A stretch of 64,000 nucleotides of DNA, taken from NCBI RefSeq assembly GCF_003018235.1, contig NZ_CP027437.1. One strand, written 5' to 3'. Shown one piece after another: positions 1 through 59,776 of this stretch. The translations under genes were made by a program, and so were the position numbers. The DNA comes from Escherichia coli. GTDB lineage: Bacteria; Pseudomonadota; Gammaproteobacteria; Enterobacterales; Enterobacteriaceae. The number at the start of each line of letters is the position of its first letter. Positions within the stretch are counted from its first letter, which is position 1. Under the pieces are notes generated by a model. That model ran no database searches. It saw only the letters and a list, made by a program, of their open reading frames with translations, and had not been told where the DNA came from.

Positions 1-164
1 GTGCCGAAAAATATCTATTAACCGCCCCGTTTTGTTTTATACATGTCCGGACTACGGACAGATTTTAGTATTGTTGTGAAATTATTCTGCTTTATATTTA
101 CCCTCAGAGATGGCAACTGAAGCTCTTCCACATGGGGCTTCTTAATCTGTGATAAGGGTAAAAA

Positions 165-1718: not shown

Positions 1719-1744
1719 TGTCAGAATTTTATGAGGTATGACGA

Positions 1745-2215
1745 ATGGACATAACAAAAATCCTGAATACGAATCGCGTTATTTTAGATATGCAAGCGAC
1801 GAATAAAGCGGAGGCGATTGAAGAATTAACTAATCTTCTCAAAAAAGATGGTGCGATCGATTGTCGGGAAACCTTTATTAAAGATGTCTGGCAGCGCGAA
1901 GCGGAAGGCTCGACTGGTTTTGAAAATCATATTGCGATCCCGCATGGTAAATCTTCTGCGGTAATTAATACCACGCTGGCGATCGGGCGAACCCGGCAGG
2001 ATATTCCCTGGGAAACGCTGGATGGCAGTAGCGTGCGCTGTATTATTTTATTTGCGGTACGTCTTGAAGATCAAAATACCACCCATATCCGTTTACTTTC
2101 CCAGGTCGCGGGTGCGCTGGCGGATGATGACATCATAGAACAATTGCTGGTTGAGACGAGTCCGCAAAAAATCATTGATCTCTTTAGTCAGTATGCACAA
2201 TCCGATGTCTGCTAA
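1745..2215 (+). CDS. PTS EIIA component, fructose/mannitol (type-2) family
   Basis: 156 aa; conserved HIAIPHGK phosphorylation-site His motif; operon context. Confidence 0.8.
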   Translation: MDITKILNTNRVILDMQATNKAEAIEELTNLLKKDGAIDCRETFIKDVWQREAEGSTGFENHIAIPHGKSSAVINTTLAIGRTRQDIPWETLDGSSVRCIILFAVRLEDQNTTHIRLLSQVAGALADDDIIEQLLVETSPQKIIDLFSQYAQSDVC

Positions 2216-2232
2216 ATAACAGGGAGTATGTC

Positions 2233-2547
2233 ATGAATATTGTCTGTGTTGCCGCCTGCACGGCGGGTATTGCTCACACCTATATTGCTCGTGAAAAGTT
2301 AATTAAAGGGGCAAAAGCACTGGGCCACACCATTAAAGTTGAAACCCAGGGAACCATTGGTACAGAAAACGAATTACAGGCGGCAGAGATCTCTGCTGCT
2401 GACGTCGTGATTCTTGCTGTGGATGTGAAAATAAAAGGAGAAGAACGTTTTACCAATAAACGCATTGTGCGAGTAAAGACAGAGATCGTCATTAAATCGC
2501 CCGTTCAATTTCTTGAAAAGGTCGAAAAATCACTGGGAAATAAATGA
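2233..2547 (+). CDS. PTS EIIB component, fructose-type
   Basis: 104 aa; N-terminal CVAACTAGIAHTYIA Cys motif typical of fructose-family EIIB. Confidence 0.8.
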   Translation: MNIVCVAACTAGIAHTYIAREKLIKGAKALGHTIKVETQGTIGTENELQAAEISAADVVILAVDVKIKGEERFTNKRIVRVKTEIVIKSPVQFLEKVEKSLGNK

Positions 2548-2571
2548 TCCTTATACTGGAGGGATCTTAAT

Positions 2572-3663
2572 ATGAAAGAAAATAAAATTCCGGTTTCACA
2601 GGAAATTAAAAAACATTTATTAACCGGCATCTCGTGGATGATACCCCTTATTGTGGCCGCCGGGATATGTATTGCGTTGGGGCAAGTTCTTGGCGGTACA
2701 GATGTTGGTGAAAAAACAGGAACAATCCCGTGGATGCTTAATCAGATTGGCGGCTGGGGAATGGGGCTGATTGTGCCGCTGATTAGCGCGGCAATTGCCT
2801 ATTCTATTGCTGATCGTCCCGGTTTTGCCCCGGGCCTGATTGTCGGCTTTCTCTGTGGGCAAATCCATACCGGATTTATTGGCGGTATGTTGGGTGGTTT
2901 CCTGGTGGGCTACACCATTTTGCTACTTAAACGCTATATCCGCCTGCCGCAGTCGATGCAAGGACTCATGCCAATCATGGTGTTACCGGTATTGAGCACC
3001 ATTATCGGTGGGCTGTTAATGATGACGCTGATTGGTAAACCCATCGCCTGGTTACAAGAAGCACTGACTCATTTGCTCGAGTCGATGCAGGGCGGATCGC
3101 GCTTCCTGATGGGGGCCATACTTGGCGCGATGGCAACCTTCGATTTCGGTGGTCCGGTCAACAAAACCATGTCGCTGTTTTCCGATGGCTTGCTGGTCAG
3201 TGGCGTCTACGGACCAGAAGCCGTGAAATTTGTCGGCTCAATCATCCCTCCGTTTGGCATCACACTTTCGTTCTTACTGACACGCCATAAATACACCCGT
3301 GCGGAGCGCGAGGCGCTGAAAGCCGCGTTTCCGATGGGGATCTGCATGATCACTGAAGGAGTCATTCCGATCGCCGCGCGTGACCTGCTGCGAGTAGTGG
3401 GATCTTGTGTGGTGGCATCGGCGGTCGCGGGCGGCTTAATCATGGTGTGGGGCGTGGAGAGTCCGGTTCCGCATGGCGGCATGTTTGTTGTGCCTCTGTT
3501 CACCCATCCTCTGCTGTTTTGCCTGGCGCTGGGTATAGGCACGGTGATTTGTGGCGTGATGCTTTCACTCTGGAAGAAACCGGTAACGGAACGCGACGAA
3601 GAGTTTGACGAACTGAGCGATCAAAAGCTGAAAGATGAAGAGATCACTTTCACCCTCGAATAA
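2572..3663 (+). CDS. PTS EIIC permease, fructose-like family
   Basis: 363 aa, highly hydrophobic multi-TM protein; GGAGG SD upstream; follows EIIA/EIIB. Confidence 0.8.
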   Translation: MKENKIPVSQEIKKHLLTGISWMIPLIVAAGICIALGQVLGGTDVGEKTGTIPWMLNQIGGWGMGLIVPLISAAIAYSIADRPGFAPGLIVGFLCGQIHTGFIGGMLGGFLVGYTILLLKRYIRLPQSMQGLMPIMVLPVLSTIIGGLLMMTLIGKPIAWLQEALTHLLESMQGGSRFLMGAILGAMATFDFGGPVNKTMSLFSDGLLVSGVYGPEAVKFVGSIIPPFGITLSFLLTRHKYTRAEREALKAAFPMGICMITEGVIPIAARDLLRVVGSCVVASAVAGGLIMVWGVESPVPHGGMFVVPLFTHPLLFCLALGIGTVICGVMLSLWKKPVTERDEEFDELSDQKLKDEEITFTLE

Positions 3664-3674
3664 CCGGAGGCCCT

Positions 3675-4526
3675 ATGTTTGCCGATATGAAAAGTATGGT
3701 GATGAAAGCCTGGCATGAACATTACGCCTTGCTGGCGATCAACTGTATGAATCTGGAAAGTGCTCACGCAGCTATCCGCGTGGCGGAGAAGAATCGCGCT
3801 CCGATCATTCTCAATCTCTATCAGGGGCATCTGGCGCATTTTCCTGCACCCGTCGCGGCGGCAGTGGTTAAAACGCTCGCGGAATCTGCCTCAGTACCGG
3901 TCGCTCTGGCGCTTGATCATGGCAAAAATCCGGACTGTATTCGTCAGGCGTTTCGTGCTGGTTTCAGCGGATTAATGATTGATGCTTCTGCTTTTCCCCT
4001 GGAGGAAAACGTGCGCCAGACCAGGGCGGTGGTGGAACTCGCCGCCAGCGCGCAGCTCTGCGTGGAAGGCGAACTGGGCCATCTGGCAGATGCGCCGCGT
4101 TACGACCAGGCCGCCAATGCAGACCTGATGACGCAACCCACTGATGTGGAACCGTTTATCGCGCAGACAGGCATTGATCTACTGGCCGTCTCGGTAGGCA
4201 CGGCGCACGGCATGTACGCGCCTGGTGTTGTACCTGCTATTGATTTTCAGCGTCTGGCGGAGATTTTCCACTGCTCGAGCGTGCCTCTGGCATTACATGG
4301 CGGTAGCGGTACGCCGTTCGATCAGCTCCAGCTCTGTACGACGCTGGGGGTAGCAAAAATCAACGTGGGGGCGGCCATTTTTGAACGGGGGAAATCCGCG
4401 CTCCTGCATACCCTCTGTCACGATATATCCATTGAACTGGTGGACGCGCTGAAAGCTATGGAACTGGCCTTCGAAGAAGCGATTACACCGTATTTACAGG
4501 CGAGCGGCTCTATAGGCAAAGCCTGA
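3675..4526 (+). CDS. Class II ketose-1,6-bisphosphate aldolase (GatY/KbaY/FbaA family), copy 1
   Basis: 283 aa; LDHG, GTAHG and LHGGSG metal-binding motifs. Confidence 0.8.
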   Translation: MFADMKSMVMKAWHEHYALLAINCMNLESAHAAIRVAEKNRAPIILNLYQGHLAHFPAPVAAAVVKTLAESASVPVALALDHGKNPDCIRQAFRAGFSGLMIDASAFPLEENVRQTRAVVELAASAQLCVEGELGHLADAPRYDQAANADLMTQPTDVEPFIAQTGIDLLAVSVGTAHGMYAPGVVPAIDFQRLAEIFHCSSVPLALHGGSGTPFDQLQLCTTLGVAKINVGAAIFERGKSALLHTLCHDISIELVDALKAMELAFEEAITPYLQASGSIGKA

Positions 4527-4606
4527 TTCATTTTCTGTCATGGCCTTTATGCCAGTGCAATAACGCACCGGCAGGGCGGACTACACGCTGAAACTGGAGA
4601 TTTAAC

Positions 4607-5467
4607 ATGTTAGTTTCGATGAAAGAATTACTGCAACCTACCCGCCAGCACGGCTTTGCCATTGGCGCATTTAATGTGGCGGATAACTGTTTCCTTCGCG
4701 CAGTCGTGGATGAAGCAGAAGCGACAAATACTCCGGCGATTATTGCCATCCATCCCAGCGAACATGATTTTGTGGGCGATGCCTTTTTCGCTCACGTTCG
4801 CGAAATTACCCAGCGTAGTCCGGTCCCGTTTGTACTGCACCTCGATCATGGTGCCTCTGTAGAGCATGTTTTGCGTGCGATTCGCTGCGGATTTACCTCA
4901 GTAATGATCGACGGTTCGCTGCTGCCGTATGAAGAAAACGTGGCGCTGACCGCAGAAGTGGTTCGCCTCGCTCACGCGGTTGGAGTGTCGGTTGAGGGTG
5001 AACTGGGAACCATCGGACAAACAGGAACGTCGGTAGAAGGTGGTGTTTCACAAGTGACCTACACAGATCCGGCGCAGGCCGCCGATTTTATTGCTCGTAC
5101 AGGTGCCGACACTCTGGCTGTGGCGATTGGTACAGCGCATGGCATCTATCCAAAAGGGATGCAGCCGAAGCTGCAAATGGACATTTTGCGCGACATTGCC
5201 GGACGTATTGATATTCCGCTGGTGCTACACGGTGGTTCGGCAAACCCGGACGCGGAGATTGCTGAATCAGTTACGCTCGGCGTCGGCAAAATCAATATCT
5301 CCAGCGATATGAAATACGCCTATTTCCAGAAAGTGCGTGAAATTCTCGCTAAAGAGAGCTGGTGGGACCCGAACGTCATCTATCCGGATGCGATTAACGC
5401 GGCGCGGGAAGTCATTCGCCACAAAATGAAACTGTTCGGTTCGCTCGGTAAAGCATCACTGTACTAA
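4607..5467 (+). CDS. Class II ketose-1,6-bisphosphate aldolase, copy 2
   Basis: 286 aa; HLDHG, IGTAHG, LVLHGGS motifs; paralog of preceding gene. Confidence 0.8.
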   Translation: MLVSMKELLQPTRQHGFAIGAFNVADNCFLRAVVDEAEATNTPAIIAIHPSEHDFVGDAFFAHVREITQRSPVPFVLHLDHGASVEHVLRAIRCGFTSVMIDGSLLPYEENVALTAEVVRLAHAVGVSVEGELGTIGQTGTSVEGGVSQVTYTDPAQAADFIARTGADTLAVAIGTAHGIYPKGMQPKLQMDILRDIAGRIDIPLVLHGGSANPDAEIAESVTLGVGKINISSDMKYAYFQKVREILAKESWWDPNVIYPDAINAAREVIRHKMKLFGSLGKASLY

Positions 5468-5474
5468 GCCAGAA

Positions 5475-5495
5475 GGGCGGGGTGACCCGCCTTTT
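5475..5495 (+). terminator. GC-rich hairpin (GGCGGG-GTGA-CCCGCC) followed by TTTT between aldolase-2 and ROK kinase; possible intra-operon attenuator/partial terminator
   Basis: Inverted repeat read directly from sequence, T-run downstream. Confidence 0.35.
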
Positions 5496-5514
5496 ACGCA
5501 ACAAGGAACGAGAT

Positions 5515-6447
5515 ATGCACTATCTGGGGTTGGATATTGGTGGGACCAAAATCGCCGCCGTCGTCATGGATGCGCATGGCTGGGAGATTCGCCGTTACCG
5601 CTGCCCGACGCAAAAGTCGACATATCAACAATTTGTCTCATGCGTTGTGGCGTTTATCGAGCAGATTAGGCGGGACGTTCAACGACCGATGCTGACAGGG
5701 ATCGCCTTACCCGGCAGTATCTCGCCACTCACTGGCCTGATTAAAAACGCGAATATTCAGGTGATTAACGGTCATGCGTTACAGGCTGATTTGCAGCAAT
5801 TGCTTGGGCAACCGGTGGTGATAGCCAATGATGGTAACTGTTTCGCGCTATCAGAAGCTTGCGACGGTGCCGGGCAAGATTATGACGTGGTATTTGGTAT
5901 TACGCTTGGTACGGGCTGCGGCGGTGGCATTGCCATCAAGCAACGACCGTTTATAGGGGCCTGGGGAAATGCTGCCGAATGCGGTCATATCACGTTGCCA
6001 AGCTATACGGAGCAGGAAGATGGTCCATCAGTCAGTTGCTATTGCGGCAAACACAACTGCGTGGAGTCGTTTGTTTCCGGCAGCGGTTTTAGTGAACGCT
6101 ATCAACAGATGACTGCTAACTTGCTCACTCCTGCGGCGATTGTCACCCTGGCACAACGTGGTGATGCTTGTGCCATGCAGCAGGTGGCACGTTTTCGCCA
6201 ACAGCTTGCCCGCACGCTGGCAACCATCGTTAACGTTGTTGACCCTGGCGTGATTGTGATTGGCGGCGGGCTTTCGAATGTGGAACTGCTTATCACCGAT
6301 CTGAACGCAGAAGTCGCTCCACTGGTTTTCACCGACCAATTCACCACCCCCATTGTAAAAGCGCAGCACGGCGACAGTAGCGGAATGCGTGGCGCTGCCT
6401 GGCTTGCTATGCGCAACGGAGAAGCCAATGAAACGTTCACAAATTAA
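5515..6447 (+). CDS. ROK-family sugar kinase
   Basis: Start trimmed to MHYLGLDIGGTKIA (AAGGAA SD upstream); ROK glycine-rich ATP motif and Cys-rich zinc motif (CYCGKHNC). Confidence 0.8.
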   Translation: MHYLGLDIGGTKIAAVVMDAHGWEIRRYRCPTQKSTYQQFVSCVVAFIEQIRRDVQRPMLTGIALPGSISPLTGLIKNANIQVINGHALQADLQQLLGQPVVIANDGNCFALSEACDGAGQDYDVVFGITLGTGCGGGIAIKQRPFIGAWGNAAECGHITLPSYTEQEDGPSVSCYCGKHNCVESFVSGSGFSERYQQMTANLLTPAAIVTLAQRGDACAMQQVARFRQQLARTLATIVNVVDPGVIVIGGGLSNVELLITDLNAEVAPLVFTDQFTTPIVKAQHGDSSGMRGAAWLAMRNGEANETFTN

Positions 6448-7108
6448 TTATGTTATTGATAAAGCACATGCCATTGCGCAGACCTTCCGCGTTTGTTTGC
6501 CAGAGTTCGCCTATTTTACGGTGGATGACTGGCTGCAGCGGGAACGGGATAACTGGCAAGAAGTGGTCGACTTACAGCTCGGTTGGGATATCACCGATTT
6601 TGGTCGTGGTGATTTCAACCAAACGGGACTAACACTGCTAACGATGCGCAACGGCGCGCTGGGGGCGGCGGCATATCCAAAACCGTATGCTGAGAAAATG
6701 TTGCAGATCCAACAAGATCAGCAGACTCCCTGGCATTTTCACACCCACAAAATGGAAGATATCCTCAATCGGGGCGGTGGAGACTTATGCATGCAGTTGG
6801 CCTGGGCCAACGAAGCCAATCTCTGTGATGATCAACGAGTCATTACCGTGAGTGTTGATGGTCAGCGGCGTACCATGAAACCTGGTGAAACGCTGGTGCT
6901 AAAGCCGGGGCAGGGCATTTGCCTGCCGCCGCGTCTGTATCATCGCTTCTGGGCGGAAAAAGCGTTTGTTCTCGGCTGGGAAATTTCGATGGTAAATGAT
7001 GACCAACACGATAACTATTTTCTTGAGCCGGGAGGACGTTTTCCGGCGATAGAAGAAGATGAACCGGTGAAATGGTTATTGTGCAGTGAGTATGGAATTT
7101 TGCGCTAA
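6428..7108 (+). CDS. Cupin-superfamily protein (D-lyxose/sugar isomerase-like)
   Basis: Start chosen at MKRSQINYV (overlaps ROK stop by 20 nt); HFHTHK cupin metal motif; last gene of frz-like operon. Confidence 0.7.
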   Translation: MKRSQINYVIDKAHAIAQTFRVCLPEFAYFTVDDWLQRERDNWQEVVDLQLGWDITDFGRGDFNQTGLTLLTMRNGALGAAAYPKPYAEKMLQIQQDQQTPWHFHTHKMEDILNRGGGDLCMQLAWANEANLCDDQRVITVSVDGQRRTMKPGETLVLKPGQGICLPPRLYHRFWAEKAFVLGWEISMVNDDQHDNYFLEPGGRFPAIEEDEPVKWLLCSEYGILR

Positions 7109-7117
7109 TAACGGGGA

Positions 7118-7143
7118 ACGCTAGCGCTGATATCCGCTAGCGT
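7118..7143. terminator. Bidirectional hairpin terminator between convergent frz-like operon and yicH
   Basis: Perfect 9-bp inverted repeat ACGCTAGCG / CGCTAGCGT with 8-nt loop, followed by T-rich tract. Confidence 0.45.
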
Positions 7144-7151
7144 CCTTATTT

Positions 7152-10651: not shown

Positions 10652-11857
10652 ATGTTTCATCTCGATACTTTAGCAACGCTTGTTGCCGCAACGCTGACGT
10701 TGCTGCTCGGGCGTAAGTTGGTCCATTCCGTCTCCTTTTTGAAGAAATACACCATACCGGAACCTGTTGCGGGTGGTTTGTTGGTGGCGTTAGCGCTACT
10801 GGTACTGAAAAAAAGCATGGGCTGGGAAGTCAACTTTGATATGTCCCTGCGCGATCCGTTAATGCTGGCATTCTTCGCCACCATTGGCCTGAACGCCAAC
10901 ATTGCCAGTTTGCGTGCCGGTGGGCGTGTGGTTGGCATCTTCTTGATTGTGGTTGTTGGTCTGTTGGTGATGCAAAATGCCATTGGCATTGGTATGGCTA
11001 GCCTGTTAGGGCTTGATCCGCTGATGGGGCTGTTGGCCGGTTCTATTACGCTTTCCGGCGGTCACGGTACGGGCGCTGCGTGGAGTAAATTGTTCATTGA
11101 ACGCTATGGCTTCACCAATGCGACGGAAGTGGCGATGGCCTGTGCGACGTTTGGTCTGGTGCTGGGCGGCTTGATTGGCGGTCCGGTAGCGCGCTATCTG
11201 GTGAAACACTCCACCACGCCGAACGGTATTCCGGATGACCAGGAAGTCCCGACGGCGTTCGAAAAGCCGGATGTGGGCCGCATGATCACCTCGCTGGTGC
11301 TGATTGAAACTATCGCGCTGATTGCTATCTGCCTGACGGTGGGGAAAATTGTTGCGCAACTTTTGGCTGGCACTGCTTTTGAACTGCCGACCTTCGTCTG
11401 TGTACTGTTTGTTGGCGTGATTCTGAGCAACGGTCTGTCAATGATGGGCTTTTACCGCGTCTTTGAGCGTGCGGTATCCGTGCTGGGTAACGTAAGCCTG
11501 TCGTTGTTCTTGGCGATGGCGCTGATGGGGCTGAAATTATGGGAGCTGGCTTCGCTGGCGCTGCCGATGCTGGCGATTCTGGTGGTACAGACCATCTTCA
11601 TGGCGCTGTATGCCATCTTCGTTACCTGGCGCATGATGGGCAAAAACTACGATGCGGCAGTGCTGGCTGCGGGTCACTGTGGTTTTGGCCTCGGTGCAAC
11701 GCCAACGGCAATCGCCAACATGCAGGCGATCACTGAACGTTTTGGCCCGTCGCACATGGCCTTCCTGGTCGTGCCGATGGTCGGTGCGTTCTTTATTGAT
11801 ATCGTTAACGCGCTGGTGATTAAGCTGTATTTGATGTTGCCGATTTTTGCCGGTTAA
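10652..11857 (+). CDS. gltS: Sodium/glutamate symporter
   Basis: 401 aa, polytopic membrane protein; matches GltS. Confidence 0.9.
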   Translation: MFHLDTLATLVAATLTLLLGRKLVHSVSFLKKYTIPEPVAGGLLVALALLVLKKSMGWEVNFDMSLRDPLMLAFFATIGLNANIASLRAGGRVVGIFLIVVVGLLVMQNAIGIGMASLLGLDPLMGLLAGSITLSGGHGTGAAWSKLFIERYGFTNATEVAMACATFGLVLGGLIGGPVARYLVKHSTTPNGIPDDQEVPTAFEKPDVGRMITSLVLIETIALIAICLTVGKIVAQLLAGTAFELPTFVCVLFVGVILSNGLSMMGFYRVFERAVSVLGNVSLSLFLAMALMGLKLWELASLALPMLAILVVQTIFMALYAIFVTWRMMGKNYDAAVLAAGHCGFGLGATPTAIANMQAITERFGPSHMAFLVVPMVGAFFIDIVNALVIKLYLMLPIFAG

Positions 11858-11859
11858 AA

Positions 11860-12726
11860 ATGAAAAAGCGTCGGAAGGAACCGGAAACGCTACGTGAACA
11901 CTGTCGCCATATTTTTGGTGACGAGCCGCCAGTGCTCTGTGTATGGGAAACGGAATTTGATTACGCAGATGCCGAACTCAAGGCGCTGGCGGCTAAAGAG
12001 TGGCAACAGATAGGCGAATGGGATTTGAGTGCTTACTATGTACTCAATCTCGTTTATAACGAACCGATGCAAATAGAGCTGTTTCGCTATCTGTTTCCGC
12101 TATGCCTGGCGCAATGGCATGAAACCGTTTTAGCTGGCGGTTATGGTGATCACTTCGAAGAATCCTTAATGAAGGCATTGCGTCGGCCCTATCTCTGGCA
12201 GGAGATGATGAATGCTTCCCAACGCCAGCAGGTACGGCAATTTTTACTGGAAACCGCGTTGCAGCGTATGGATAACGAGCGTGGTTTCAATAATGTTCTT
12301 TGCTGGCTGGCGGTGTTCAATACTCTGGGCGGGGCCGCGCCGTTAATTCATTCTCTCTGGTCACGCTGGTGGGCACTGGATACGCCGGGAAAAGCGGTGT
12401 GTGCTATTCAGTATGCCGCGCATCTAATTTATCCCATAGAAGCCAATCCGTTATGGTCGCAAGAATGGTTAGGCTGGGGGCATCCATTAGGTCATAAAGA
12501 TGGCTGGTCCTCTGAGAATCGCGCTTTTCTTCGCCAAATGTTAACACCTGAAATGATTGTGGCTGGCGTACAGGCAGCGGCTGAAATTCTGCGTGGTGAA
12601 CCGGAAGGCGCAATGGCGGCGCGAATTGCGCAGGATGCGTATGAGGCAATGGATATCATCACTATCCAGATTGAAGATTTACTGCGTGACTTGTCTTGCG
12701 ATGAGTCAGGTCATGCGTTGGAGTAA
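11860..12726 (+). CDS. Hypothetical protein, unknown function (Trp-rich, soluble)
   Basis: 288-aa ORF starting 3 nt after gltS stop; 3' end overlaps recG 3' end on opposite strand; no family recognised by eye; absent from K-12 at this position as far as I recall. Confidence 0.55.
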   Translation: MKKRRKEPETLREHCRHIFGDEPPVLCVWETEFDYADAELKALAAKEWQQIGEWDLSAYYVLNLVYNEPMQIELFRYLFPLCLAQWHETVLAGGYGDHFEESLMKALRRPYLWQEMMNASQRQQVRQFLLETALQRMDNERGFNNVLCWLAVFNTLGGAAPLIHSLWSRWWALDTPGKAVCAIQYAAHLIYPIEANPLWSQEWLGWGHPLGHKDGWSSENRAFLRQMLTPEMIVAGVQAAAEILRGEPEGAMAARIAQDAYEAMDIITIQIEDLLRDLSCDESGHALE

Positions 12727-22463: not shown

Positions 22464-23327
22464 TTATTCAATGTTCTGAATCTGCTCGCGCATCTGCTCA
22501 ATCAACACTTTCAGCTCAATCGCGGAGTTTGTCACTTCGGCATTGATAGACTTCGAAGCAAGAGTGTTCGACTCGCGGTTGAACTCCTGCATCATAAAGT
22601 CCAGACGACGGCCAACCGCTTCTTTTTTCTTCAGAATGTTGTAGGTCTCTTTGACATGCGCTTCGAGGCGGTCCAGTTCTTCGGCAACATCAATTCGTTG
22701 TGCCAGCAGAACCAACTCCTGCTCCAGGCGGTTGTTTTCCAGTTGCACTTGAGCATCTTCCAGCTTCGCGACCAGACGCTCACGCTGCCATTGCAGGATT
22801 TCCGGCATATGGGCGCGGACTTTGACTACTTCGGCGGTGACGCCTTCCAGACGCTGCTCGATCAATGCTTTCAGCGCCTGACCTTCGGTTTCGCGCGCGA
22901 CGATAAAGTCGTCCAGCGCACCATCCAGCGCCGCGAGAATTTCAGCGGCTATCGCGTCGAGATCCTGCTCCTGGGCTGCCATTACGCCCGGCCAGCGCAG
23001 AATATCAACCGGGTTGATTTCCCCTTCGTCACTCTGCATTTTTACCCAGTTCGCAGCAGTAACCAGCTGTTTAGCCAGTTTTTCGTTGAGGATCAGCTCA
23101 CCTTGCGCGCTGACATCTGGCTCATAGCGCAGGGTACATTCCACTTTACCGCGCGTCAGGCGAGAACGAATACGCTCGCGAACGACAGGTTCAAGGCTAC
23201 GGAACTGCTCCGGCAGACGAAAGTAAGTTTCCAGATAACGCTGGTTTACCGAGCGCATTTCCCAGGTTGCGCTCCCCCATTCACCCTTGATTTCACGCCG
23301 GGCGTAGGCGGTCATACTGCGGATCAT
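22464..23327 (-). CDS. yicC: YicC-family stress-induced protein (UPF0701)
   Basis: 287 aa; synteny between dinD and rph. Confidence 0.85.
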   Translation of the reverse strand: MIRSMTAYARREIKGEWGSATWEMRSVNQRYLETYFRLPEQFRSLEPVVRERIRSRLTRGKVECTLRYEPDVSAQGELILNEKLAKQLVTAANWVKMQSDEGEINPVDILRWPGVMAAQEQDLDAIAAEILAALDGALDDFIVARETEGQALKALIEQRLEGVTAEVVKVRAHMPEILQWQRERLVAKLEDAQVQLENNRLEQELVLLAQRIDVAEELDRLEAHVKETYNILKKKEAVGRRLDFMMQEFNRESNTLASKSINAEVTNSAIELKVLIEQMREQIQNIE

Positions 23328-23453
23328 AGACGTTCCTGTTTATAAAAGGAGAGGTGGAAGGATTATAGCCATCGATGCCTTGTCAGGATAGGAATAACCG
23401 CCGGAAGTCCGTATAATGCGCAGCCACATTTGTTTCAAGCCGGAGATTTCAAT

Positions 23454-24170
23454 ATGCGTCCAGCAGGCCGTAGCAATAATCAGGTGCGTCCCGTTACCCT
23501 GACTCGTAACTATACAAAACATGCAGAAGGCTCGGTGCTGGTCGAATTTGGCGATACCAAAGTGTTGTGTACCGCCTCTATTGAAGAAGGCGTGCCGCGC
23601 TTCCTGAAAGGTCAGGGCCAGGGCTGGATCACCGCAGAGTACGGCATGCTGCCACGCTCTACCCACACCCGTAACGCGCGTGAAGCGGCGAAAGGTAAGC
23701 AGGGTGGACGCACCATGGAAATCCAGCGTCTGATCGCCCGTGCTCTTCGCGCGGCAGTAGATTTGAAAGCGCTGGGTGAGTTCACCATTACGCTGGACTG
23801 CGACGTGCTTCAGGCTGATGGTGGCACTCGTACCGCGTCGATTACAGGTGCCTGCGTGGCGCTGGCAGATGCGCTACAGAAGCTGGTGGAAAACGGTAAG
23901 CTGAAAACCAATCCGATGAAAGGGATGGTAGCCGCGGTTTCTGTCGGGATTGTGAACGGCGAAGCGGTTTGCGATCTGGAATACGTTGAAGACTCTGCCG
24001 CAGAGACCGACATGAACGTAGTGATGACCGAAGACGGGCGCATCATTGAAGTGCAGGGGACGGCAGAAGGCGAACCGTTTACCCACGAAGAATTACTCAC
24101 CTTGTTGGCTCTGGCCCGAGGGGGAATCGAATCCATTGTAGCGACGCAGAAGGCGGCGCTGGCAAACTGA
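23454..24170 (+). CDS. rph: Ribonuclease PH (full-length)
   Basis: 238 aa from [16 protein letters not shown]; intact C-terminus (no K-12 rph-1 frameshift). Confidence 0.9.
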
Positions 24171-24177
24171 TTTTTAA

Positions 24178-24203
24178 GGCGACTGATGAGTCGCCTTTTT
24201 TTT
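24178..24203 (+). terminator. rph-pyrE intercistronic attenuator (rho-independent hairpin + T8)
   Basis: GGCGAC-TGATGA-GTCGCC followed by TTTTTTTT, 7 nt after rph stop. Confidence 0.7.
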
Positions 24204-24235
24204 GTCTGTAGAAAAGTAAGATGAGGAGCGAAGGC

Positions 24236-24877
24236 ATGAAACCATATCAGCGCCAGTTTATTGAATTTGCGCTTAGCAAGCAGGTGTTAAAGTTTGGCGA
24301 GTTTACGCTGAAATCCGGGCGCAAAAGCCCCTATTTCTTCAACGCCGGGCTGTTTAATACCGGGCGCGATCTGGCACTGTTAGGCCGTTTTTACGCTGAA
24401 GCATTGGTGGATTCCGGCATTGAGTTCGATCTGCTGTTTGGCCCTGCTTACAAAGGGATCCCGATTGCGACCACTACCGCCGTGGCGCTGGCGGAGCATC
24501 ATGACCTTGACCTGCCGTACTGCTTTAACCGCAAAGAGGCAAAAGACCACGGTGAAGGCGGCAATCTGGTTGGTAGCGCGTTACAAGGACGCGTAATGCT
24601 GGTAGATGATGTGATCACCGCCGGAACGGCGATCCGCGAGTCGATGGAAATTATTCAGGCCAATGGCGCGACGCTTGCTGGCGTATTGATTTCGCTCGAT
24701 CGTCAGGAACGGGGGCGCGGCGAGATTTCGGCAATTCAGGAAGTTGAGCGTGATTACAACTGCAAAGTGATCTCTATCATCACCCTGAAAGACCTGATTG
24801 CTTACCTGGAAGAGAAGCCGGAAATGGCGGAACATCTGGCGGCGGTTAAGGCCTATCGCGAAGAGTTCGGCGTTTAA
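24236..24877 (+). CDS. pyrE: Orotate phosphoribosyltransferase
   Basis: 213 aa from [13 protein letters not shown]. Confidence 0.95.
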
Positions 24878-24884
24878 AGAAACT

Positions 24885-24908
24885 CGCCGGATGAAAAGTC
24901 ATCCGGCG
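24885..24908. terminator. Bidirectional hairpin between convergent pyrE and slmA
   Basis: CGCCGGATGA / (T)CATCCGGCG inverted repeat. Confidence 0.5.
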
Positions 24909-24913
24909 TCATA

Positions 24914-25510
24914 TTACTGCAACTGTGCGGCAATTAGCGGCCAGCGGGCGTCAAAATCATCCGTCGGGCGGTATTTAAACTCGCTGCGGACAAAGCGTGA
25001 CAGCATACCTTCACAGAAGGCCAGGATCTGGCTTGCCAGCAGGGTTTCATCAGTGGTGTAACCTTCACCCTCACGCATTCTCTTTTCGCGCAATACCTGA
25101 CGCAACTGCGCTTCAATACGCTCGAACAGCTGGTTGATGCGCCCTTGCAGGCGATCCTGTTCAAACATTAGTGCATGACCAGTGAGGATGCGGGTCAGGC
25201 CAGGATTACGCTCACCAAAACCGAGAAGCAGCAACACAATCAGACGCAGGCGCGCTGTGGTGTCCTTCTCATCTTTCAGAATCAGATTGATGCGAGTAAT
25301 CAGGCTATCTTCGATAAACTCAATCAGGCTATCGAACATGCGGGTCTTACTGGGGAAGTGGCGATACAGTGCCGCTTCGGAAACGCCGACAGAGGCGGCC
25401 AGTTTTGCCGTCGTGATACGTTGGCTTCCATCGCTGGATTCCAGCATCAGCGCCAGAGACTGAAGTATTTCCTCGCGACGGTTCCTTTTCGCAGTTTGTT
25501 TTTCTGCCAT
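24914..25510 (-). CDS. slmA: Nucleoid occlusion factor SlmA (TetR family)
   Basis: 198 aa from [16 protein letters not shown]. Confidence 0.9.
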
Positions 25511-34056: not shown

Positions 34057-34846
34057 ACTTAAAGAGCCGTTTGCCACGTTATGGCGCGGAAAAGATCCTT
34101 TTGAGGAAGTTAAAACTTTGCAGGGTGAGGTATTTCGTGAACTGGAAACTCGCCGTACTCTACGCTTTGAAATGGCGGGCAAAAGCTATTTTCTCAAATG
34201 GCATCGCGGCACGACCCTGAAAGAGATAATCAAAAATTTACTCTCATTGCGGATGCCAGTATTAGGCGCAGACCGCGAATGGAATGCGATTCATCGACTG
34301 CGGGATGTCGGCGTTGATACTATGTATGGGGTGGCATTCGGCGAAAAAGGCATTAATCCGCTCACCAGAACCTCGTTTATTATAACCGAAGATCTGACAC
34401 CAACCATCAGTCTGGAAGATTACTGTGCTGACTGGGCGACTAACCCACCAGATGTTCGCGTAAAGCGTATGCTTATTAAGCGTGTCGCGACGATGGTGCG
34501 CGATATGCATGCTGCGGGCATTAACCACCGTGACTGTTATATCTGTCATTTCCTGCTGCACTTGCCTTTTTCCGGTAAGGAAGAGGAGTTAAAAATTTCG
34601 GTAATTGACCTGCACCGGGCGCAGCTTCGCACGCGCGTTCCACGTCGTTGGCGCGATAAAGATCTTATAGGGCTTTATTTTTCTTCGATGAATATTGGCC
34701 TGACTCAGCGGGATATCTGGCGGTTTATGAAAGTGTATTTTGTCGCCCCGCTTAAAGACATTCTCAAGCAGGAACAAGGGCTGCTGTCGCAAGCAGAAGC
34801 AAAAGCCACAAAAATCAGGGAAAGAACGATTAGAAAATCGTTGTAA
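34049..34846 (+). CDS. waaP: LPS core heptose(I) kinase
   Basis: 265 aa from [20 protein letters not shown]. Confidence 0.9.
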
Positions 34847-34888
34847 CCCGTAACTTATTTTTGCCAAAATTTTGGATACAGAATAAAT

Positions 34889-35896
34889 ATGTCTCAACTC
34901 AATGATAGTGACATCATCCTTTTTGAGTATAACTTTCATTATCAAAATATAAGATCTAAAAATACTCTTGATATCGCATTTGGTATTGACAGAAATTTTC
35001 TTTTTGGATGTGGTGTAGCCATCGCATCTATTCTATTAAACAATAGCGAAATCTCTTGTGAATTTCATGTTTTCACAGATTATATCAGTGATAAAGACAA
35101 GTTATATTTTTCCGATTTAGCAAAACAATATAATTCAAGAATTAATATTTATGTAATCAATTGTGATAAACTGAAGTCATTACCAAGCACGAAAAACTGG
35201 ACTTACGCAACATATTTTCGATTTATAATTGCAGATTATTTCTATCATAAACATGAAAAAATACTATATCTTGATGCAGATATTGCTTGCAAGGGTAGTA
35301 TTAAAGAACTCTTAGATTATCAATTTTCTCCTAATGAAATTGCCGCAGTTGTAGCTGAAAGAGATGTTGAATGGTGGCAAAATCGAGCCTCGGTATTAAC
35401 TACACCACAGTTAGCTTCTGGATATTTCAATGCTGGTTTTTTACTGATAAATATTGATGAGTGGAATCTAAATAACATTTCGTCAAAAGCTATTGAAATG
35501 TTGCGTGATCCAGATTGGGTAAGTAAAATTACCCACCTTGATCAAGATGTACTGAATGTATTATTGAATGGTAAAGTGAAGTTTATTTCGGGGAAATATA
35601 ATACCCGATATAGTATTAACTACGAATTAAAAGACAAAGTTGATAATCCAGTCAATGATGACACCGTGTTTATACACTATGTGGGACCTACAAAACCCTG
35701 GCATGAGTGGGCTGATTATCCGGTGTCACGTAGTTTTTTGATCGCCAAGGCAGCTTCTCCGTGGAGTAAAGAAGATTTACTTAAACCTGTAAATAGCAAT
35801 CAGTATCGGTATTGTGCAAAACATAAATTTAAACAAAAGCATTATATGGCAGGCATTTTTAATTATTTAAAGTATTATAAAGAAAAATGTTTCTAA
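34889..35896 (+). CDS. waaI: LPS outer-core alpha-1,3-hexosyltransferase (GT8)
   Basis: 335 aa; GT8 motifs (YLDADI, HY.G..KPW); low GC; symbol assumes R3-type order. Confidence 0.65.
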   Translation: MSQLNDSDIILFEYNFHYQNIRSKNTLDIAFGIDRNFLFGCGVAIASILLNNSEISCEFHVFTDYISDKDKLYFSDLAKQYNSRINIYVINCDKLKSLPSTKNWTYATYFRFIIADYFYHKHEKILYLDADIACKGSIKELLDYQFSPNEIAAVVAERDVEWWQNRASVLTTPQLASGYFNAGFLLINIDEWNLNNISSKAIEMLRDPDWVSKITHLDQDVLNVLLNGKVKFISGKYNTRYSINYELKDKVDNPVNDDTVFIHYVGPTKPWHEWADYPVSRSFLIAKAASPWSKEDLLKPVNSNQYRYCAKHKFKQKHYMAGIFNYLKYYKEKCF

Positions 35897-35921
35897 AGAT
35901 TTAAGGTTAAAATAATTCATT

Positions 35922-36629
35922 ATGATATATAATAAAACGATAAACGGATTGAAAGTTTTCATAAAAGATAATGATCCCTTTTATGAGCAAGTTCTGAATG
36001 ACTTTTTAACTTGCAGGGTTAAAACATTAAAAGTTTTTCGTTCTATTGATGATACTAAAGTCATTCTTATTGACACTGCTCGTGGACCTCTTGTACTTAA
36101 AGTTTATGCGCCAAAGCATAAAATGATCGAACGTTTCTTAAAATCTTGCATAAAAAAAGATTATTATGAAAATTTAATTTATCAAACCGATCGGGTACGT
36201 GGTGAAGGCGTTCAATCAATTAATGACTATTTTTTGCTTGCTGAACGTAAAACATTAAATTTCGCGCATTATTATATTATGCTCATTGAGTATATTGAAG
36301 GTGTCGGGTTAAATGAGTATTTGGAAATTTCTGAAGATCTGAAGGATCAATTATCAGAATCGATAAAAGAGCTGCATCAGCATGGAATGGTGTCTGGCGA
36401 TCCTCATAAAGGAAATTTTATAGTATCCGAAAAAGGTTTAAGACTAATTGACCTTTCAGGTAAAAAAACAACCGCTGTTTTAAAAGCAAAAGATCGCATT
36501 GATCTTGAACGGCACTATAATATAAAAAATGAATTGAAAGACTTTGGCTATACATATCTTATATTCAAAAAGAAAATTAAAAAAGTAATCAGGGATGTAA
36601 AAGTCAAACTAGGATTGAAGAGCAAATAA
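35922..36629 (+). CDS. waaY: LPS core heptose(II) kinase
   Basis: 235 aa WaaY/Kdo-kinase-like protein between two GT8 genes. Confidence 0.75.
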   Translation: MIYNKTINGLKVFIKDNDPFYEQVLNDFLTCRVKTLKVFRSIDDTKVILIDTARGPLVLKVYAPKHKMIERFLKSCIKKDYYENLIYQTDRVRGEGVQSINDYFLLAERKTLNFAHYYIMLIEYIEGVGLNEYLEISEDLKDQLSESIKELHQHGMVSGDPHKGNFIVSEKGLRLIDLSGKKTTAVLKAKDRIDLERHYNIKNELKDFGYTYLIFKKKIKKVIRDVKVKLGLKSK

Positions 36630-36653
36630 TGATTATGATGAAGGGTAATTAAA

Positions 36654-37667
36654 TTGGATTTTAAACATCTTACTCAATTTAAAGATATAATTGAACTGGA
36701 CAAGCGCCCTGTTAAACTTGATGAACGGGAAACGTTTAATGTCTCATGGGGTATTGATGAGAACTACCAGGTAGGGGCTGCGATTTCAATTGCTTCAATT
36801 CTTGAAAATAATAAACAAAACAAATTTACCTTTCACATAATCGCTGATTACTTAGACAAAGAGTATATTGAATTATTATCACAATTAGCAACGAAGTATC
36901 AAACAGTAATTAAATTATATCATATTGATTCTGAGCCATTGAAGGCGCTACCTCAATCAAATATCTGGCCAGTATCTATTTATTATCGTTTGCTTTCATT
37001 TGATTATTTTTCTGCGCGATTGGATTCATTATTATATCTTGATGCTGATATCGTCTGTAAGGGTTCATTGAACGAGTTAATAGCATTAGAGTTTAAAGAT
37101 GAATATGGGGCTGTGGTAATTGATGTAGATGCTATGCAAAGTAAAAGCGCTGAGCGTTTATGTAATGAGGATTTTAACGGTAGCTATTTTAACTCTGGTG
37201 TAATGTATATTAATTTACGGGAATGGTTACAACAAAGACTAACGGAGAAATTCTTTGATCTATTATCAGATGAGTCAATTATCAAAAAATTAAAGTATCC
37301 GGATCAAGATATTTTAAACTTAATGTTTTTACATCATGCTAAAATATTACCGAGAAAATATAATTGTATTTATACTATAAAGTCAGAATTTGAAGAAAAA
37401 AATAGTGAATATTACACCCAGTTTATTAATGATGAAACTGTCTTCATACATTATACTGGTGTAACTAAGCCATGGCATGATTGGGCGGACTACGCATCTG
37501 CAGATTATTTCCGTAATATTTATAATATATCTCCATGGAGAAATATACCTTATAAAAAAGCTGTTAAAAAACATGAGTACAAAGAAAAATATAAACACTT
37601 GCTTTACCAGAAAAAATTTCTCGATGGTGTTTTTACAGCAATTAAATATAATGTTATGAAAGGTTAA
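36654..37667 (+). CDS. waaJ: LPS outer-core alpha-1,2-glycosyltransferase (GT8)
   Basis: 337 aa; GT8 motifs; paralog of preceding GT8. Confidence 0.65.
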   Translation: MDFKHLTQFKDIIELDKRPVKLDERETFNVSWGIDENYQVGAAISIASILENNKQNKFTFHIIADYLDKEYIELLSQLATKYQTVIKLYHIDSEPLKALPQSNIWPVSIYYRLLSFDYFSARLDSLLYLDADIVCKGSLNELIALEFKDEYGAVVIDVDAMQSKSAERLCNEDFNGSYFNSGVMYINLREWLQQRLTEKFFDLLSDESIIKKLKYPDQDILNLMFLHHAKILPRKYNCIYTIKSEFEEKNSEYYTQFINDETVFIHYTGVTKPWHDWADYASADYFRNIYNISPWRNIPYKKAVKKHEYKEKYKHLLYQKKFLDGVFTAIKYNVMKG

Positions 37668-37675
37668 TACTCGAG

Positions 37676-38818
37676 ATGGTTGATAAAATAATATTTACAG
37701 TCACTCCTATTTTTTCAATTCCTCCTCGCGGAGCGGCCGCTGTTGAAACGTGGATGTATCAGGTTGCTCAGCGTACCAATTTCCCAAATCGTATTGTTTG
37801 TATCAAGAATCCAGGATACTCAAATTACACCTTTGTTAATGATAATTGTAGTATTCATAGGGTTGGATTCAGTCGCATATATAAGCGGTTATTTCAAAAA
37901 TGGACAAGACTTGATCCTCTTCCATATTCACAGAGAATATTGAATATTGCCCATGATTTTCCTATAACGAAAGAAAGTGTTATTGTAGTTCATAATAGCA
38001 TGAAACTATACACTCAAATTCGTAAGCGAGCTCCTCAGGCAAGAGTGGTTATTCATATGCATAATGCATTTGAACCAAAATTGCTTGAGCAAAATGTTAA
38101 AATGATAGTGCCTAGTTTATACTTGAAAAAGTATTACCAATCTTATTTAGCAAATGCAGATATTGAGATTGTACCAAATGGAATTGATTTAGAAACCTAT
38201 CAATCTACTTTTCAGCCGATCACTAGAAGCGAACTTAATATCTCCCCTGAAGAGAAAATTATTTTTTATGCTGGGCGTATCGTCCCTGATAAAGGCATAT
38301 TACTGTTGATGCAATCATTCGAAAAATTGGCCGCTGCTCACAAAAATTTAAAATTAGTTGTGATTGGTGATTATACAGAAATGAGTAAAAGTGACAAAGG
38401 TGCATATCAACGCAATGTCAGGGAAATTGCAAAACGTTTGAAGGATCGTTGCATTATGTTAGGAAGCATACCGCCTGAAAATATGCATTGTTATTACCCA
38501 CTGGCGGATTTAGTCGTCATTCCTTCCCAGTTCCAGGAACCATTTTGCATGGTGGCAATTGAAGCTATGGGGGCTGGTAAGCCTGTTTTAGTGAGTACGC
38601 GTGGGGGGATGACGGAATTTGTCAAAGAAAATACTACGGGATTCCATTTAAAAGAACCTATGACTGCAGACTCCATAAGCAGCGATATTTTAAAAACGTT
38701 AGCGAATCCTGAATTAACAGCAGTTGCAAAGCAAGGTCAGGATTTTGTGTTTGATCACTACAGTTGGGATGGCGTAACTCAAAGATTTGAAGAGGTTATT
38801 CATAATTGGTTTGAATAA
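37676..38818 (+). CDS. waaD: LPS outer-core glycosyltransferase (GT4; WaaD/WaaK-like)
   Basis: 380 aa; GT4 C-terminal EX7E-type region; last gene before waaL; symbol tentative. Confidence 0.55.
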   Translation: MVDKIIFTVTPIFSIPPRGAAAVETWMYQVAQRTNFPNRIVCIKNPGYSNYTFVNDNCSIHRVGFSRIYKRLFQKWTRLDPLPYSQRILNIAHDFPITKESVIVVHNSMKLYTQIRKRAPQARVVIHMHNAFEPKLLEQNVKMIVPSLYLKKYYQSYLANADIEIVPNGIDLETYQSTFQPITRSELNISPEEKIIFYAGRIVPDKGILLLMQSFEKLAAAHKNLKLVVIGDYTEMSKSDKGAYQRNVREIAKRLKDRCIMLGSIPPENMHCYYPLADLVVIPSQFQEPFCMVAIEAMGAGKPVLVSTRGGMTEFVKENTTGFHLKEPMTADSISSDILKTLANPELTAVAKQGQDFVFDHYSWDGVTQRFEEVIHNWFE

Positions 38819-38825
38819 ATAAAAA

Positions 38826-38848
38826 GGCCGCATTATGCAGCCTTTTTA
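38826..38848. terminator. Bidirectional terminator between convergent waaD-like gene and waaL
   Basis: A5-GGCCGCA...TGCAGCC-T5 hairpin (one mismatch) flanked by A and T runs. Confidence 0.45.
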
Positions 38849-38852
38849 TTTT

Positions 38853-40061
38853 TTACTTGTTTTTCATCGCTAATAATAAGCCGGCGTAAACACCTAATAA
38901 ATTTGGTTCAATTTGTTCTACGTTTCCACGGATAACAAAATAACCTATAAAAGATAGTAAGATTATATAATATGCATTATATGGTGAGCGGTATTTATTC
39001 TGGACGCCATTTTTTATACACTCTTTCAATATTGCACAGTATAGCATCATAAGACTTACCAGCCCTAATAAACCAGTGCCAAACCAGATGAATAGCGCAA
39101 AATTATGTGGCCCTATTGATTGTCTAAAGGTCCATTCTGGATAATCAACGACACGTTTATTATAGACATCTTTATATGCAACGTTACCGTAACCATAACC
39201 AATAACAGGATTCTCTAATATTAGATCGAGTGCGCTGCCTTGAGTACCATTTGCATAGCGATAAGAACTATTAGTTTGTTGAAGTTTATACGTTAGCTTT
39301 GCGGTCATCTCCTTATGTGTGAAAATAACCGACAATGCAATGATGGAAACCATTACTCCTACTAATAGTAACTTCCATTGTTTAAACATCAGAATCCATA
39401 TTAATCCAATGACTAACACGGAAAGCCAGGCCCCTCTGGATAAAGTTCCTAATATCAGAAAAATAAAAATAAAGCTTAGAACCACAAAAGAAATGCGGTA
39501 TTTTGCTGATTTGATAAGCCAGAGATTTAACAATGCAGGGAATAAAAAGACCATCGAGTCAGAAATGCTACGGTGTCTATAATCTGCGAATGGCATTATC
39601 CCTTGTTGATAGTCCTTATAATAGGCAATCAATTCAGAAAAACAGCGTAAGCCCAACGCACTAATAAATGAGAAGAAAACGATTTTTTCGACATCTTCTC
39701 TTTTCTCGTCTCTCAATATGACTGGTATTGCTATTGTGCATAGTAAAGTATTCTCAATAATAGCTTTGAAAATTTCCTTCATGCTAGCCCCTGCATCAGG
39801 GGATTGAAGAAGTGACAGCAATGCAGCAATAGTTAATATGGCAACACTACCAAAAAGAAATGTTTTAAATAGTGAGAGATAATGTTTTGGCCGTTTGCAG
39901 AGATAGACGATTGTCGTTATTGTCATAAGAATAACGATAAGATGTTTATACCTTGTAATCCCACCCAAAAAATAGGTGGTAATGAATAAGAATACGAGAG
40001 CTCTGTTCCAGTACGCTATCCAGTTTTTTTTCTCGAGAGAGAAAAATAATGTTGAGGTCAT
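38853..40061 (-). CDS. waaL: O-antigen ligase
   Basis: 402 aa polytopic membrane protein in the conserved waaL position; start overlaps waaC stop (ATGA). Confidence 0.8.
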   Translation of the reverse strand: MTSTLFFSLEKKNWIAYWNRALVFLFITTYFLGGITRYKHLIVILMTITTIVYLCKRPKHYLSLFKTFLFGSVAILTIAALLSLLQSPDAGASMKEIFKAIIENTLLCTIAIPVILRDEKREDVEKIVFFSFISALGLRCFSELIAYYKDYQQGIMPFADYRHRSISDSMVFLFPALLNLWLIKSAKYRISFVVLSFIFIFLILGTLSRGAWLSVLVIGLIWILMFKQWKLLLVGVMVSIIALSVIFTHKEMTAKLTYKLQQTNSSYRYANGTQGSALDLILENPVIGYGYGNVAYKDVYNKRVVDYPEWTFRQSIGPHNFALFIWFGTGLLGLVSLMMLYCAILKECIKNGVQNKYRSPYNAYYIILLSFIGYFVIRGNVEQIEPNLLGVYAGLLLAMKNK

Positions 40062-41050
40062 CTTATCTCCGATGTCAACTTATTGGTTATTATTTCAAGA
40101 TTTAAATTTTGAAAAACGGTTTGAGCTGGCAAATCTGCAAGAGACATACTTGTAGAACGACACTCTACTTGATTCTTCCCATACCCACCAATTAATCCAG
40201 GATCGGTTGGTCCATAAACCGTGATATTGGGTCTATCCAGTGCCGCCGTTAAATGGCTTAACCCCGTATCCACCGACACTACAAATTTAGCCCCGGCCAG
40301 CACGCGGGCAACGCCTTCCAGACTCATCTTCGGCAATACTTCAACATAAGCAAATCCTTCCGCCAGTCGTTTCGCCCGTTCTTCCTCATGCGGCGCGCCC
40401 CACGGAAGTTTAATCCGTATTCCTGAATCAGCCAGTAAACCAATCAATTCTCGCCAGTGTTCTTCCGGCCAGTGTTTATCATCTCGGGTTGTTGCATGAA
40501 GAAATACGGCATATTCGCCAGCATCTGTAGGCAGGTTCGTCAGGAAATGCTGTGCGATAGCATAATCGCCCTGGGTTTGTGGTTTGCTATAGCCCAGACT
40601 TTTGGCAAACAGTTCGCGGGTGCGTTCTACGGCGTGCTGCTGTTTTGCAATATGATGCTTACGATTGTAAAACAGGCTGGCTAAAGGTTCGCGAGCGGTT
40701 TGCCAGTCCATTCCATGCTTTACGCCATGCGCCAGACGCGTCACCAGCGCCGCGCTTTTTACCAGCCCCTGAGCGTCGATAACTGCGTCATAGTTCTCTG
40801 CTTGTAGCGCTTCACGAAACGCTTTCCGTTCAGCTTTTATGGGGGCCGAGAACCAGGCTTTACGCCAGCGACGTATTGCCACAGGAATAACTCGCTCAAC
40901 AGCGGCGTGCCAGGAAGGAATTTGTGCGAACCCTTCTTCCACCACCCAGTCAAACTTAATCCCCGGGATTGCCTGCTGGGCATCAGTGAGTGCGGGCAAC
41001 GTATGGAGAACATCGCCCATCGACGATGTTTTAACGATCAAAACCCGCAT
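40058..41050 (-). CDS. waaC: LPS heptosyltransferase I
   Basis: 330 aa MRVLIVKTSSMGDVLHTLPALTDA; C-terminal ~30 aa appear to differ from the K-12 protein as remembered. Confidence 0.9.
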   Translation of the reverse strand: MRVLIVKTSSMGDVLHTLPALTDAQQAIPGIKFDWVVEEGFAQIPSWHAAVERVIPVAIRRWRKAWFSAPIKAERKAFREALQAENYDAVIDAQGLVKSAALVTRLAHGVKHGMDWQTAREPLASLFYNRKHHIAKQQHAVERTRELFAKSLGYSKPQTQGDYAIAQHFLTNLPTDAGEYAVFLHATTRDDKHWPEEHWRELIGLLADSGIRIKLPWGAPHEEERAKRLAEGFAYVEVLPKMSLEGVARVLAGAKFVVSVDTGLSHLTAALDRPNITVYGPTDPGLIGGYGKNQVECRSTSMSLADLPAQTVFQNLNLEIITNKLTSEIR

Positions 41051-59751: not shown

Positions 59752-59776
59752 TTAGTCACACTAAGTTAATGGATCA

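Follow-up and report, generated by a model that had tools for sequence, protein, structure and literature searches.

The window, which is the whole 64,000-nt stretch of Escherichia coli DNA that was analyzed, very probably contains the wild-type rph–pyrE operon of a strain outside the K-12 lineage, with an intercistronic pyrE attenuator between the two genes. The feature is already known, as this is the textbook wild-type rph–pyrE operon with its well-studied UTP-sensitive attenuator. The attenuator is reportedly the subject of work by Poulsen, Bonekamp, Andersen and Jensen from 1984 to 1992, and the rph-1 allele of K-12 is said to go back to Jensen in 1993. It has been described that pyrE is regulated by transcriptional attenuation, which responds to the UTP pool (PMC10087573), and that passing the intercistronic attenuator needs close coupling of transcription and translation, which is broken by rph-1 (PMC11148124).

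The rph reading frame and its surroundings

The list of open reading frames and the translation showed that rph is a single unbroken frame of 717 nt, which runs from the ATG at 23454 to the TGA at 24168–24170 (Table 1). The protein was compared with the NCBIfam profile TIGR01966, which is the RNase PH equivalog. The match covered positions 1–235 of the 236 in the profile (E = 1.9e-114), and the score of 380.8 bits, with the cutoff at 141.5, places the product in this family. The MG1655 rph product covers only positions 1–221 of the same profile. The protein encoded in the window is the same as WP_001247093.1, for which the annotation in two E. coli strains, 18KM2445 and MLI104K2, is ribonuclease PH. 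Hence, the claim of the earlier note that an intact rph encodes a full-length RNase PH of 238 amino acids is borne out by both the frame and the profile match. That rph had been knocked out by some other lesion, and was non-functional despite the intact G-run, is extremely improbable, because the 238-codon frame is uninterrupted, the profile is matched over its full length well above the cutoff, and an identical protein is annotated as RNase PH in two other strains. Nothing in favor of such a lesion turned up in the frame, the profile match, or the protein identity.

To compare the 3′ part of the gene with that of K-12, as the earlier note had proposed, rph was aligned with the corresponding genes of MG1655 (NC_000913) and W3110 (NC_007779), which are annotated as "truncated RNase PH" and "frameshifted," respectively. 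The alignment showed that the G-run near codon 223 consists of five guanosines in the window but of four in both MG1655 and W3110, and therefore the rph-1 frameshift is absent. The rph-1 allele, which is found in K-12 MG1655, W3110, and EMG2 (PMC9997739), shares the locus and the G-run with the window, but with four guanosines the shifted frame, as seen in MG1655, ends in ...ARGESNPL at the TAG equivalent to 24139–24141 and gives a product of 228 amino acids. This TAG is located 29 nt before the natural stop codon and 34 nt 5′ of the hairpin. In the window, the frame stays open to the TGA beside the attenuator, with the end of the open reading frame at 24170, which agrees with the previously proposed wild-type arrangement, unlike that of MG1655 rph-1.

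The likely promoter region of the operon contains a perfect −10 hexamer located 36 nt 5′ of the rph ATG, and this stretch is the same in the alignment with MG1655 and strain 18KM2445. No good −35 hexamer was found for this TATAAT, and a consensus scan gave no full two-hexamer promoter there, but the region is likely to serve as the rph–pyrE promoter, as judged from its sequence. On the other side of the intercistronic region, the GAGGAG or AGGAG sequence upstream of the pyrE ATG is kept in the species sampled. The PyrE protein scored 240.6 bits against the TIGR00336 profile (cutoff 106.8, E = 8.1e-72), which places it in that family, and it is identical to MG1655 PyrE and to WP_000806177.1. 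The locus had been correctly placed by the earlier note, but the span given there ended at 24236, and this base is already the A of the pyrE ATG.

TABLE 1. Features of the rph–pyrE region, with positions counted from the first nucleotide of the window
Feature	Positions	Strand	Basis or remark
TATAAT, perfect −10 hexamer, likely rph–pyrE operon promoter region	23412..23417	+	Read from sequence
rph, full-length RNase PH	23454..24170	+	238 codons and TGA; ORF translation, TIGR01966
10-bp direct repeat GCAGAAGGCG, copies at 24063–24072 and 24146–24155	24063..24155	+	Positions found in sequence
G-run of five; the K-12 rph-1 frameshift is a loss of one G here	24120..24124	+	Alignment; near codon 223
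Out-of-frame TAG, premature stop in rph-1 strains, unused in the window	24139..24141	+	MG1655 translation
rph stop codon TGA	24168..24170	+	Separated by 5 nt from the first base pair of the attenuator stem
U5 spacer, stop codon to hairpin	24171..24175	+	Read from sequence
Attenuator hairpin, 9-bp stem (5 G-C pairs), loop GAUG	24176..24197	+	Folding
T8 run (U-tract) of the intrinsic terminator/attenuator	24196..24203	+	Read from sequence
pyrE ribosome-binding region, GAGGAG at 24224–24229	24221..24235	+	Read from sequence
pyrE, orotate phosphoribosyltransferase, 213 aa and stop	24236..24877	+	TIGR00336

The intercistronic hairpin and its proposed role

The closest known system is the rph–pyrE operon of E. 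coli K-12, with which the window shares the gene order (yicC reading leftward, rph and pyrE rightward, slmA leftward), the hairpin, the T8 run, and the position of the rph stop codon directly 5′ of the stem. The intercistronic region of 65 nt is base-for-base the same as in K-12, and the two operons differ only by 29 coding substitutions, two of which alter residues of RNase PH. The hairpin has the sequence AAGGCGACU-GAUG-AGUCGCCUU, with the 5′ arm at 24176–24184, so that a G+C-rich hairpin followed by a U-tract is located between rph and pyrE. The local hairpin folded with an energy of −14.2 to −14.7 kcal/mol, and its z-score was between −5.7 and −6.4 (−6.35 at −14.2 kcal/mol); of the 200 shuffled sequences, none was as stable. 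The fold of the wider region of 141 nt was not unusual in comparison with shuffled sequences (z = −1.1), and it is the local hairpin alone that stands out. The distance of 7 nt between the end of rph and the hairpin (24178–24203), given in the earlier note, is right when measured to the G+C core, and it becomes 5 nt when the two outer A-U pairs of the stem are counted. The Rfam scan of positions 23000–25200 (E ≤ 1) matched no family covering the pyrE attenuator. A match of RyhB to the terminator (24.5 bits versus the gathering score of 55, E = 0.12) was sub-threshold and at the level of chance, and it was set aside; it probably reflects the terminator-like hairpin with its U-tract.

According to the published model of this operon, rph and pyrE would be cotranscribed, and the intrinsic terminator in the intercistronic gap would act as the pyrE attenuator, with the readthrough set by the distance at which the ribosome on the last part of rph trails the RNA polymerase. 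UTP-sensitive slowing of the polymerase on a U-rich template is known for the pyrE attenuator. In the window, scarce UTP would be expected to slow the polymerase on the U5 spacer, the U8 tract, and the U-rich codons upstream. The ribosome would then get to the stop codon and cover the 5′ arm, so that the hairpin would be blocked and pyrE transcribed, while with plentiful UTP the polymerase would be ahead, the hairpin would form, and transcription would end. Because no more than 5 nt separate the stop codon from the stem, a ribosome terminating there is expected to mask the 5′ arm, as judged from known ribosome footprints, and a ribosome released at 24141 would not reach it. Since rph stays in frame up to its natural stop codon, the coupling would be intact in this strain. 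In rph-1 strains, on the other hand, the ribosome would leave at the early TAG, the hairpin would always form, and pyrE would be under-expressed. In MG1655, the loss of the G is reported to slow growth without uracil by ∼10%–15% (a figure attributed to Jensen in 1993). The pyrBI leader of E. coli is also a UTP-sensitive attenuator coupled to translation, and it follows the same logic, in which low UTP slows the polymerase on a U-rich template and the terminator hairpin is kept from forming by the trailing ribosome. In pyrBI, what is translated is a short, dedicated leader peptide, whereas the "leader" in the window would be the end of rph, a full-size functional gene. Nothing that contradicts the attenuator reading was found in this analysis, although a terminator located a few nucleotides past a stop codon is also common at ordinary gene ends.

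The same part of the operon has been altered in evolved laboratory strains. In seven of 11 evolved lines of MG1655, an 82-bp rph–pyrE deletion, which arises by recombination between the two copies of GCAGAAGGCG and speeds growth, moved the stop codon back beside the attenuator loop, and this shift is thought to relieve the MG1655 defect (PMC2784333). In the rph+ sequence of the window the spacing of the two copies is 83 bp rather than 82. In K-12 NBRC 3301 (NZ_CP048439.1), where rph is annotated as "missing C-terminus," a deletion joins both copies of the repeat, and its junction is exactly that of the 82-bp deletion in laboratory-evolved MG1655.

Conservation of the rph end and the attenuator

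The 96-nt sequence at 24110–24205, which includes the end of rph and the attenuator, is identical in ∼4665 of the 5424 complete E. coli genomes. A few natural isolates with intact rph each have a 1-nt deletion in this stretch, which leaves 95 nt of it. One of them, E. coli MLI104K2, has lost one C from the 3′ arm (AGUCG-CUU; equivalent to 24194–24195), which leaves an intercistronic region of 64 nt and a weaker hairpin; the intercistronic region of E. coli GPEC1292 is also 64 nt long. Outside E. coli, a four-G run with the ...ARGESNPL truncation and a stop codon 34 nt from the hairpin was seen in Kluyvera genomosp. 3 YDC799 (CP022114.1, ∼4040–4240). It was set aside as a case of independent rph-1, because this rph is frameshifted a second time close to the 5′ end, which makes a homopolymer assembly error probable.

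To compare the attenuator across species, one genome per species was scanned for the pyrE start by means of a degenerate pattern, which gave at least 120 loci, belonging to Enterobacterales, Aeromonas, and Vibrionaceae, with no E. coli representative among the matches listed. A C-terminus of RNase PH was recognizable 5′ of pyrE in 99 of these loci (matches listed). When each sequence was searched separately for a strict Watson–Crick hairpin followed by a T-run, 80 of the 99 species contained one among the matches listed, and ∼90 of the 99 did when G-U pairs were allowed, again among the matches listed. In the control, a strict hairpin was detected in only five of 3000 random 63-nt windows. The hairpin started 3–9 nt past the rph stop codon in 78 of the 80 strict cases among the matches listed, with the mode at 4–5 nt, and the spacer across the species sampled was U-rich. 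The stems varied by clade, with complementarity kept: GGCGACU/AGUCGCC in enterics, CGCGGC/GCCGCG in Aeromonas, GCGACC/GGUCGC in Dickeya and Pectobacterium, and GCGGUUCC/GGAGCCGC in Photobacterium. When 50 attenuators from different species were aligned with MAFFT, RNAalifold gave only seven pairs with weak covariation (−0.62 kcal/mol). This weak signal is explained by variable loop lengths, which put the stems out of register, and hence the argument from compensatory changes rests on the per-sequence detection of hairpins.

These data allowed us to weigh a different explanation, in which the hairpin would be a constitutive terminator of a monocistronic rph, pyrE would have its own promoter, and the position of the rph stop codon would be irrelevant. 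The element does have all the features of a plain intrinsic terminator, and in some species the hairpin is located 100–360 nt from pyrE, which would leave room for a separate promoter. However, the 38 nt that separate the hairpin from the pyrE ATG in the window showed no sigma-70-like promoter, and the narrow range of stop-to-stem distances across species is not expected if the stop position did not matter. The intercistronic region of the window is also the same as that of K-12, in which rph-1 and the 82-bp deletion act through this element to alter pyrE expression or growth (PMC11148124, PMC2784333). A constitutive terminator is therefore very unlikely, and the translation-coupled attenuator is the preferred reading. 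The short distance of 3–9 nt from the rph stop codon to the hairpin recurs in Enterobacterales, Aeromonadales, and Vibrionales. It is an evenly balanced question whether such an attenuator is ancestral to much of Gammaproteobacteria, with the stop-to-stem spacing under direct selection, and if it were, there would be nothing special about the window in this respect.

Several genomes depart from the common spacing. In Aeromonas popoffii, A. veronii, and an Aeromonas MAG, the upstream stop codon and the hairpin are separated by an insertion of ∼210–270 nt, while in a genome labeled Serratia marcescens and in Symbiopectobacterium rph is extended at its C-terminus, with the frame closing 68 nt short of the hairpin. 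These exceptions may have lost the coupling or have it in an altered form.

The background of the strain

The earlier note took the intact rph as showing that the strain does not derive from K-12. The strain is indeed not K-12, as other evidence indicates, but the rph allele could not show this, because many K-12 strains are rph+. When MG1655 rph with the fifth G put back was searched against complete E. coli genomes, it was identical over 837 of 837 positions in C600, DH5alpha, DH1, DH10B, MC4100, BW2952, and NCM3722, and likewise in RV308, ER2796, AG100, GM4792, NEB strains, and others. Genome comparisons have also identified WG1, JM83, JM109, and XL1-Blue as rph+ K-12 strains, and rph-1 as common to EMG2, MG1655, and W3110 (PMC9997739, PMC11148124). 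The exact 90-mer of rph-1 is present in 167 of the 5426 complete E. coli genomes. The rph-1 allele is a marker of the EMG2/W1485/MG1655/W3110 branch only, so that its absence cannot exclude K-12 ancestry.

The origin of the window was instead judged from its divergence from MG1655. There are 15 substitutions in rph, which give V138A and I216T in RNase PH, and the 1424 nt of rph–pyrE contain 29 substitutions and one gap, which corresponds to 97.9% identity. The four collinear blocks of the window are 94.4%–98.0% identical to MG1655, and for the segments at 1–7150, 11857–12721, 34742–40170, and 59755–64000, ∼17 kb in all, the corresponding region of MG1655 has no counterpart. The window thus lacks the >99.9% identity and collinearity with MG1655 that would be expected of a K-12 lineage. 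The possibility that it comes from an rph+ K-12 strain, which either never acquired rph-1 or is a repaired MG1655, deserves consideration in view of the many rph+ K-12 derivatives (PMC9997739, PMC11148124), and of the intercistronic region and PyrE protein, which are the same as in K-12. Nevertheless, the substitutions, the low identity of the collinear blocks, and the segments without an MG1655 counterpart, one of which (1–7150) holds a cluster present in only 1797 of the 5426 genomes, leave this possibility next to no probability. The divergence and the missing counterparts rule out a K-12 origin of the window, and the comparison of sequences places the strain outside K-12.

The 1–7150 cluster, found in these 1797 complete E. 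coli genomes, encodes a BglG-family antiterminator, a PTS fructose-type IIC component, a ROK-family protein, and ketose-bisphosphate aldolases. The segment at 34742–40170 is the part of the waa (LPS core) region that lies between waaP/waaS and waaL, and megablast detected no similarity of it to the core-type genes of K-12, which points to an LPS core type different from that of K-12. The nearest complete E. coli genomes were 98.0%–99.6% identical, depending on the segment, which means that the lineage is not exactly represented in that set. Across the 24 kb at 12000–36000, no complete E. coli RefSeq genome was above 98.0%, and single segments matched at 99.4%–99.6% in different strains. These data suggest that the lineage is mosaic or rarely sampled.

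The background of the strain is thus to be judged by genome-wide divergence and gene content. With respect to the operon itself, its sequence is consistent with a strain that has the normal pyrimidine-regulated pyrE layout and an intact RNase PH gene, as would be the case in ∼97% of complete E. coli genomes.
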